Shown: positions 7,429-7,462, counted from the stretch's first letter. The stretch is 34,080 nucleotides of DNA from a virus (IMGVR_UViG_648276671_000020:1-34080); one strand, 5' to 3'. The notes: generated by a model not told the origin, from the letters alone. Numbers and translations are program-made.

Positions 7429-7462
7429 TCACCATTATCTATTAAGATAATGGTGATTTTTT
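7429..7462 (+). terminator. Perfect palindrome plus T-run (terminator/attenuator or operator)
   Basis: TCACCATTATC, 6-nt spacer TATTAA, GATAATGGTGA, then TTTTTT ending directly at the ATG of the next gene. Confidence 0.5.

Follow-up and report, generated by a model that had tools for sequence, protein, structure and literature searches.

The stretch of viral DNA analysed here (IMGVR_UViG_648276671_000020:1-34080; 34,080 nucleotides (nt), hereafter the window) contains an RNA hairpin at 7425-7460 (+), situated between a gene for an ImmA/IrrE-family (M78) zinc metallopeptidase and a gene for a protein with two predicted membrane helices. The hairpin is clearly real, conserved and functional, and it is very likely that the RNA helix is under selection and lowers expression of the downstream gene. 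We consider it probable, though well short of certain, that a leaky transcription terminator and a lock on the ribosome-binding site are combined in this one structure.

The palindrome would act as sense-strand RNA, in the form of a constitutive intercistronic hairpin that performs two jobs in a peptidase-membrane-protein operon. The hairpin and the U-run behind it would constitute a moderate, leaky intrinsic terminator, with most transcripts that start upstream of the peptidase gene ending at about 7460-7465 and carrying the peptidase only. In the transcripts that read through, the same helix would hold the weak Shine-Dalgarno (SD) sequence GGUGAU and most of its spacer in a stem of 14-16 base pairs (bp), and only rare ribosomes would start at the membrane-protein gene. 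The predicted net output is much peptidase and very little membrane protein. Such a ratio would fit a membrane protein that acts as a harmful effector, with the peptidase as its partner or controller.

The two functions are proposed together because the tight contact between hairpin, U-run and AUG would be unneeded for termination alone, and an all-U spacer would be unneeded for occlusion alone. No sign of a switch was found, which points to a constitutive throttle. From the sequence we infer that both genes are co-transcribed and that transcription termination and translational repression take place at the hairpin; the membrane protein is presumably toxic. Tight control of the downstream gene, which a preliminary description of the window held to follow from each of the functions it considered, can reasonably be inferred.

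Hairpin structure and chance expectation

The preliminary description had reported a perfect 11-bp inverted repeat, and its sequence was exact: TCACCATTATC at 7429-7439, TATTAA at 7440-7445, GATAATGGTGA at 7446-7456, TTTTTT at 7457-7462 and the ATG at 7463. The repeat is real, but its length had been understated, as the perfect repeat covers 14 nt (7427-7440/7445-7458). Repeat search and folding gave an RNA hairpin of 16 pairs, including one G.U, with a 4-nt loop at 7441-7444. By folding, the 29 nt between the peptidase stop and the hairpin (7396-7424, +) are an unstructured AU-rich spacer. The T6 run at 7457-7462 (+), whose first four T pair with AGAA at 7425-7428, would be both the terminator U-tract and the spacer between the SD and the AUG.

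The hairpin is far beyond chance. The RNA folding that the preliminary description had proposed as a check was run on 7396-7480 and gave a minimum free energy of -23.8 kcal/mol (z = -5.5), with none of 200 shuffles as stable; the 12-bp core of the hairpin alone has -15.4 kcal/mol. In 100 dinucleotide-preserving shuffles of the window (loop 3-8 nt), perfect hairpins of at least 11 bp occurred with a mean of 0.05 and none reached 14 bp, and 500 shuffles of the AT-rich cargo region (5775-8488) yielded 0.006 such hairpins. The real window holds four perfect hairpins of at least 11 bp, three of them within the 2.7-kb cargo stretch.

Conservation of the helix

Database relatives of the membrane protein number 49; they come from Enterobacterales and Vibrio, and the most distant shares 28% identity. 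Conservation was assessed in 29 loci (numbered with the prefix L) from E. coli genomes, a Salmonella phage, IMG/VR viral contigs, the contigs of chosen divergent proteins and metagenomes. The hairpin and its T-run end 0-1 nt before the ATG of the membrane-protein gene in all 29. Three hairpin classes can be distinguished, whose stems have no sequence in common (AATCACC/GGTGATT, AGCCACC/GGTGGCT and AGCCCTC/GAGGGCT). Class A, found in the window and in most enterobacterial loci, has the stem AAATCACC(A/T)T... / ...A(T/G)GGTGATTT; class B has AAGCCACC / GGTGGCTT, and the Vibrio-like class C has AAGCCCTCA / TGAGGGCTT. Within class A the upper stem and loop vary with matched changes, as where the C-G pair 7439/7446 becomes T-A in L001, L005 and L008, or where ATTAT/ATAAT becomes ATCAT/ATGAT in the L020 group.

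Pairs were counted on an alignment of 20 distinct sequences (alignment A4). Standard pairs made up 88% of the alignment cells, compared with 30-63% when the 3' partners were slid by 1-3 columns; most of the "broken" cells originate from L018, which is misaligned by one column. Both-side (compensatory) changes were present in 8 of the 16 pairs, and the covariation score of 0.272 was reached by none of 500 shuffles (0.130 ± 0.015). RNAalifold independently returned the basal 8 pairs, and compensatory changes occur in 4 of these. Since the stem has been fully replaced between classes with pairing kept, there is strong evidence that the helix itself, and not its sequence, is under selection.

Wider searches of genome contigs added nothing to this set. 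A profile search with the membrane-protein alignment gave no confirmed locus, and the DNA pattern AATCACC-N12-26-GGTGATTTT-N0-5-ATG matched at least 120 unrelated loci in many phyla, too unspecific to give anything usable.

Predicted sequestration of the Shine-Dalgarno sequence

The membrane-protein gene had been described as having no obvious SD, which is wrong: a weak SD, GGTGAT, is present at 7452-7457 (+), 5 nt before the ATG and inside the 3' arm of the hairpin. It is complementary to the AUCACC near the 3' end of 16S ribosomal RNA, and the 5' arm pairs with it through an AUCACC as well, which amounts to a copy of the anti-SD. The duplex of this SD with the anti-SD core amounts to only -2.8 kcal/mol, compared with -10.2 kcal/mol for the strong and exposed SD of the peptidase gene (TAGGAGGC), where the opening cost is 10.4 kcal/mol. 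Opening the region from -20 to +13 at the membrane-protein gene is predicted to cost 24.4 kcal/mol, the highest value among the window's 36 mapped gene starts although the G+C content is low here, and the mean unpaired probability over -15 to +3 is 0.24. A simple equilibrium model using the opening costs and SD energies, with an assumed scale factor, would place initiation at the membrane-protein gene three to four orders of magnitude below that at the peptidase gene.

Every hairpin class carries an SD-like purine run in its 3' arm (GGTGAT, GGTGGC or GAGGGC), with the T-run as the spacer to the AUG, and the SD is still buried in L022 and L018, in which the U-run is interrupted. In the Vibrio-type cassette of L025, a second terminator-like hairpin lies just 5' of the peptidase gene and leaves the peptidase SD free; a buried SD is therefore no automatic by-product of a terminator. 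The SD of the window is paired at working distance from its AUG, in what is predicted to be the least accessible of the gene starts, and the pairing is kept across classes. The earlier suggestion that the structure occludes the ribosome-binding region of the gene appears well founded on these grounds. The side features of L025 are located at 2392-2412 and 2915-2942, and in its intergenic region a promoter-like sequence matching at 10/12 positions, CTAACA-16-TATAAT, precedes the hairpin that buries the SD.

The start of the membrane-protein gene at 7463 is judged correct because the first 13 codons encode the conserved peptide MADIDLSGQSP, the variable sites are distributed 7/3/12 by codon position, and in every locus the open frame begins with the ATG behind the T-run. 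Pairwise differences in the N-terminal codons comprise 173 synonymous and 91 non-synonymous changes. Other starts appear in public records. NC_070905 (L034, 31737-32216) and the protein records P0002, P0018-P0020, P0039, P0040 and P0042 begin at an internal methionine and have 144-168 amino acids (aa), as against about 200-230 aa for the long form, and P0012 is over-extended (MVIFFMAN...) from an ATG inside the hairpin. The internal start, Met49, used in NC_070905 and several database entries, was rejected as the main start on the basis of the third-position variation upstream of it and the conserved peptide; the internal SD is not conserved. Automated callers probably miss the true start because its SD is weak and buried.

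Proposed transcription termination at the hairpin

The hairpin displays two features of an intrinsic terminator, namely a stable sense-strand stem-loop and a U-run directly 3' of it on the sense strand alone. The T-run comprises 5-8 T in 27 of the 29 loci, the exceptions being L022 (TTTTA) and L018 (TTATT), and in length it always exceeds the 5' A-run (2-4). For the window hairpin the d'Aubenton-Carafa d-score was +18 with the sense strand and -21.6 with the antisense (tail scores 4.5 and 2.2), and the d-score was positive in 16 of 18 other loci scored, all of these values being approximate. An independent consensus scan returned the class C hairpins of L031 and L025 as terminator-like. In the window, 4 of the 12 pairs next to the U-run are G-C, and a U-A pair closes the stem onto the U-run. 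Classes B and C have 5-6 G-C in 7-9 pairs. Partial rather than complete termination would be expected at class A hairpins because their stems are AT-rich. The preliminary description had proposed an intrinsic terminator or attenuator; this proposal gains support from the hairpin-T-run-ATG arrangement in every locus and the turnover of the stem with pairing kept, and it probably holds together with the occlusion.

Several observations weigh against the proposed combination of terminator and lock. Besides the approximate nature of the d-scores, the consensus terminator scan missed the window hairpin, apparently since its T-run is taken up into the A/T extension of the stem. Class A stems, being AT-rich, may terminate inefficiently, and the broken U-runs of L022 and L018 indicate that termination is not universal, whereas SD occlusion is. 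Wobble pairs and strand stability, used to discriminate RNA from DNA and sense from antisense, gave a mixed picture: on the sense strand, G.U pairs occur in seven sequences, L006 would pair better as antisense, and only 10 of 24 sequences are more stable as sense RNA. A lock as tight as the predicted energies would also leave almost no membrane protein; either traces would suffice or a trans-acting factor would have to open the helix.

Alternative explanations

Termination alone, with the SD falling in the 3' arm merely because the next gene starts right after it and with occlusion unselected, is unlikely. It would account for the U-run and the positive d-scores in most loci, and the class B and C hairpins resemble textbook terminators. 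However, the zero-distance geometry has been retained in all loci despite complete sequence turnover, L022 and L018 keep the SD-containing helix without an uninterrupted U-run, and the free peptidase SD in L025 indicates that burial is not forced. No conserved promoter was found 3' of the hairpin in these loci, and the membrane-protein gene would therefore depend on read-through RNA that carries the helix.

A translational lock alone is unlikely to the same degree. Here the T-run would be an AU-rich spacer that extends the helix by pairing with the upstream A-run, and polymerase would read through efficiently. That occlusion is universal and the U-run is not, that the class A stem is AT-rich and that the A-run pairs with part of the T-run are all consistent with this view. 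It does not explain why the T-run exceeds the A-run in length and is almost pure T, which occlusion does not require, and both the strand asymmetry and the G+C-rich 7-9 bp stems of classes B and C are typical of terminators.

An RNA processing or stability element, serving as a barrier to 3' exonucleases that stabilises the cleaved peptidase message, a protective 5' stem on the membrane-protein message or an RNase III site freeing the SD, is decidedly unlikely, even if such a role would be compatible with a combined terminator and lock and does not exclude it. A perfect helix of 14-16 bp between stretches of AU-rich single-stranded RNA suits this role, and differential decay within operons is a known phenomenon (PMC5927463). 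No specific sequence sign of such an element was seen in the hairpin, and the U-run and its contact with the AUG would be left unexplained. The class B and C stems have only 7-9 bp, too short for typical RNase III substrates.

A regulated attenuator or riboswitch-like leader, whose hairpin would interchange with an anti-terminator or anti-sequestor fold upon a signal or upon peptidase translation, is very improbable. In its favour, riboswitch expression platforms are usually built with a terminator that overlaps an SD, but no above-chance pairing of the 5' arm with the 150 nt upstream or of the 3' arm with the 80 nt downstream was detected in 19 loci (z -1.8 to +1.6). In 15 loci the distance from the peptidase stop to the helix is 25-48 nt, more than the terminating ribosome would cover, and the stop-to-hairpin spacer is not conserved between classes. 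Rfam searches at permissive thresholds (E up to 1) returned noise only, such as mir-451 at 21 bits on the hairpin.

The DNA operator offered in the preliminary description, on which a dimeric regulator would bind the palindrome and repress the membrane-protein gene, is scarcely credible: the dyad symmetry just 5' of the start codon is perfect and a promoter-like match (TTTAGA-18-GATAAT, 7422-7451) overlaps the palindrome, but the arm sequences are wholly different between classes, the spacing of the TCACC-GGTGA blocks ranges over 17-20 nt within class A with loops of 3-11 nt, and the cassette has no helix-turn-helix (HTH) or other DNA-binding gene, and the operator was therefore rejected. The promoter-like match is itself confined to the P2 group, L002-type, class B and class C loci having none, and the region gives 4 promoter-like matches compared with 5.9 expected by chance. 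The same match was rejected as the main expression route of the membrane-protein gene, as it is not conserved outside the P2 group.

Two further candidates were discarded. RNA thermometers (ROSE, fourU) are weak, imperfect helices over an SD that melt in the physiological range, and the present helix is a perfect 14 bp whose energy at 37 °C is about -20 kcal/mol. The idea of an antisense RNA that ends at the hairpin was rejected as there is no minus-strand promoter-like site in 5700-8600 and the antisense tail is poor.

Gene cassette and insertion site

The window is a P2-like (Peduovirus) genome with the gpA replication gene at 3456-5774 (+), the portal gene at 8489-9478 (-) and the large terminase gene at 9522-11324 (-). 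The region of interest is 99.6% identical to NC_070905, a named Peduovirus P2, and to an E. coli O121 prophage. An AT-rich stretch (42.6% G+C) separates gpA from the portal gene and carries the two plus-strand genes. The position of this interval corresponds to a defence hotspot of P2-like phages according to Rousset et al. (PMC9122126).

The peptidase gene (6910-7395, +) encodes 161 aa consisting of the peptidase domain alone (Pfam PF06114, 6e-21), with a HELAHH motif in the translation. In PADLOC it matches capP at 3e-28, over model positions 9-150 of 242 only, with weaker RmrA matches, and a profile search of PDB matched CapP (7t5t, 3e-6). Neither in the window nor in 14 other contexts does an HTH gene lie next to it. 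The downstream gene (7463-8092, +) encodes the 209-aa protein with two predicted membrane helices, which belongs to phrog_8096, a group of unassigned function; profile searches of Pfam, PADLOC, NCBIfam and PDB gave no relative, phrog_8096 being the only match. Its AlphaFold2 model is of low confidence (predicted local distance difference test 63, predicted template modelling score 0.38). An alignment of relatives (alignment A2) showed a variable N-terminus, rich in Pro, Ser and Gln and of very different lengths, together with a near-invariant second helix (AFILGVGLTL) and C-terminal ATPLSEL motif. Two cysteines between the membrane helices are kept in position in most enterobacterial members and may form a periplasmic disulfide. 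That the membrane protein is a substrate of the peptidase is speculation, raised because the peptidase has no repressor partner.

An M78 peptidase gene (161-174 aa) precedes the membrane-protein gene in 21 of 21 loci checked by annotation, gene call or open reading frame (ORF) listing, with a gap of 61-74 nt in the 15 loci with both ends read. The pair was found in P2-like phages, a P1-like element, a plasmid partition region (ParA/SopB-like), other prophages and Vibrio islands. Because it recurs in such differing surroundings, the pair is regarded as a mobile two-gene cassette. In L022, L030, L020/L021 and L025-L027 the settings are a plasmid partition region, a P1-like element, the terminase gene of an unrelated prophage and serine-recombinase-flanked Vibrio islands.

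A putative promoter of the peptidase gene is present at 6848-6876 (+), with TTGACG at 6848-6853, a 17-nt spacer, TG at 6868-6869 and a weak -10 hexamer, TAAGGC, at 6871-6876. The block CTTGAC(A/G)-N-TGTG(A/G)TA(A/T)GGCT is kept in P2-type loci and L020. The consensus scan did not report this site because the -10 hexamer is weak. At the other end of the operon, 20 nt past the stop of the membrane-protein gene, lies a terminator-like perfect 13-bp inverted repeat (ATAAAACCGGCAT/ATGCCGGTTTTAT, 8112-8142). A second perfect 13-bp inverted repeat (CAAAAAAACCACC/GGTGGTTTTTTTG, 6034-6065) resembles a bidirectional terminator, with d-scores of +17.8 and +13.6, one per strand, and would insulate the cassette from phage early transcription leaving gene A. 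These two repeats bracket the cargo cassette; together with a third at 32948-32981, they are perfect inverted repeats of 13-16 bp with A-run and T-run flanks and the look of bidirectional terminators.

The 1.1 kb between gpA and the peptidase gene (5775-6909) occurs in 150 E. coli genomes, with 87-93% identity for most, and is free of annotated genes in all 12 of those listed; its first ~735 nt recur even in genomes with other cargo downstream. This stretch is a conserved, unannotated part of the P2-like backbone. It contains a minus-strand ORF of 37 aa (MKKCYYCILVLALFGYPNGSPSGLSVNVSNIHVSIFL, 6077-6190, -), preceded by a strong SD (GGAGGCAATATG) and ending just before the 6034-6065 repeat, which may encode an unannotated small hydrophobic protein.

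Comparison with known systems

In ToxIN, a hairpin terminator between toxI and toxN lets the antitoxic partner be made in excess (PMC5772629). The present arrangement is similar in that a terminator-like element stands inside a two-part operon just before the component presumed to be harmful, in a mobile cassette associated with phage defence. It differs in that toxI is a repetitive antitoxic RNA and not a peptidase, and the components are not homologous; an SD of toxN hidden in the terminator is not described in the text consulted. The intercistronic terminator of mccA-mccB, in the microcin C operon, likewise sets the product ratio, since short upstream transcripts are abundant and full-length ones rare, and its termination is switched on by a ribosome binding the upstream ORF, via a competing upstream structure (PMC4231749). 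Unlike in mcc, no alternative structure was found here and the helix is out of the upstream ribosome's reach.

In the type I systems hok and tisB and in phage MS2, an SD-containing helix keeps a membrane-active or dose-sensitive protein at very low levels. By analogy with these hairpins, the stable local helix of the cassette would hold the SD, with the anti-SD-like AUCACC pairing to it. Antisense RNA, processing or upstream translation opens or closes the helix in those cases, whereas here neither an antisense promoter nor an alternative fold was identified. As in riboswitch expression platforms, one hairpin with a U-run overlaps the ribosome site and could act at both levels; in contrast to riboswitches there is no aptamer, alternative pairing or Rfam match, and the position is intercistronic instead of in a 5' leader.

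As regards the cassette rather than the hairpin, the upstream gene shares the M78 peptidase fold with CapP/CapH, ImmA/ImmR, IrrE/DdrO and RosmerTA (RmrA). The protein is closest to CapP, though in the peptidase domain only, and is without the C-terminal part of CapP, as is evident from the partial model match. Unlike in RosmerTA, no HTH is fused to the peptidase, and RmrA matches via its peptidase part only (e.g. positions 146-267 of 363); RmrA, an HTH-M78 fusion, is encoded downstream of the toxin gene, while the peptidase gene comes first here. The partner also differs from those of CapH/CapP and RosmerTA, being a two-transmembrane protein of unassigned function. Since the peptidase domain stands alone with no HTH partner, the cassette is neither CapH/CapP nor RosmerTA. 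No paper was found on this gene pair, its protein accessions or phrog_8096, and the pair is not described in Vassallo 2022 or Rousset 2022.

A further possibility, quite unlikely in our estimation, is that the hairpin is the trigger of an abortive-infection cassette not yet described, in which the membrane effector is doubly locked in uninfected lysogens. A product of an infecting phage would then open the lock, and the resulting burst of membrane protein would kill or arrest the cell. The opener could be a lambda N/Q-type antiterminator, an RNA helicase, a nuclease, or shut-off-induced RNA decay that strips away the 5' arm, and the peptidase would act on the variable cytoplasmic N-terminus of the membrane protein. 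The location of the cassette, in the defence hotspot of P2 and in further mobile hotspots, the lack of a cis switch and the near-zero predicted basal translation are consistent with this scenario.

The regulatory principle proposed for the hairpin, a leaky terminator joined to a ribosome-site lock, is not new; the hairpin would add one more example of a known design, in a cassette that is itself uncharacterised. The weak, buried SD would probably account for the public annotation error at the start of the membrane-protein gene. For this widespread cassette, the hairpin provides a testable wiring rule, much peptidase and almost no membrane protein, and that wiring is what would be expected of a protector-effector pair in phage defence hotspots.
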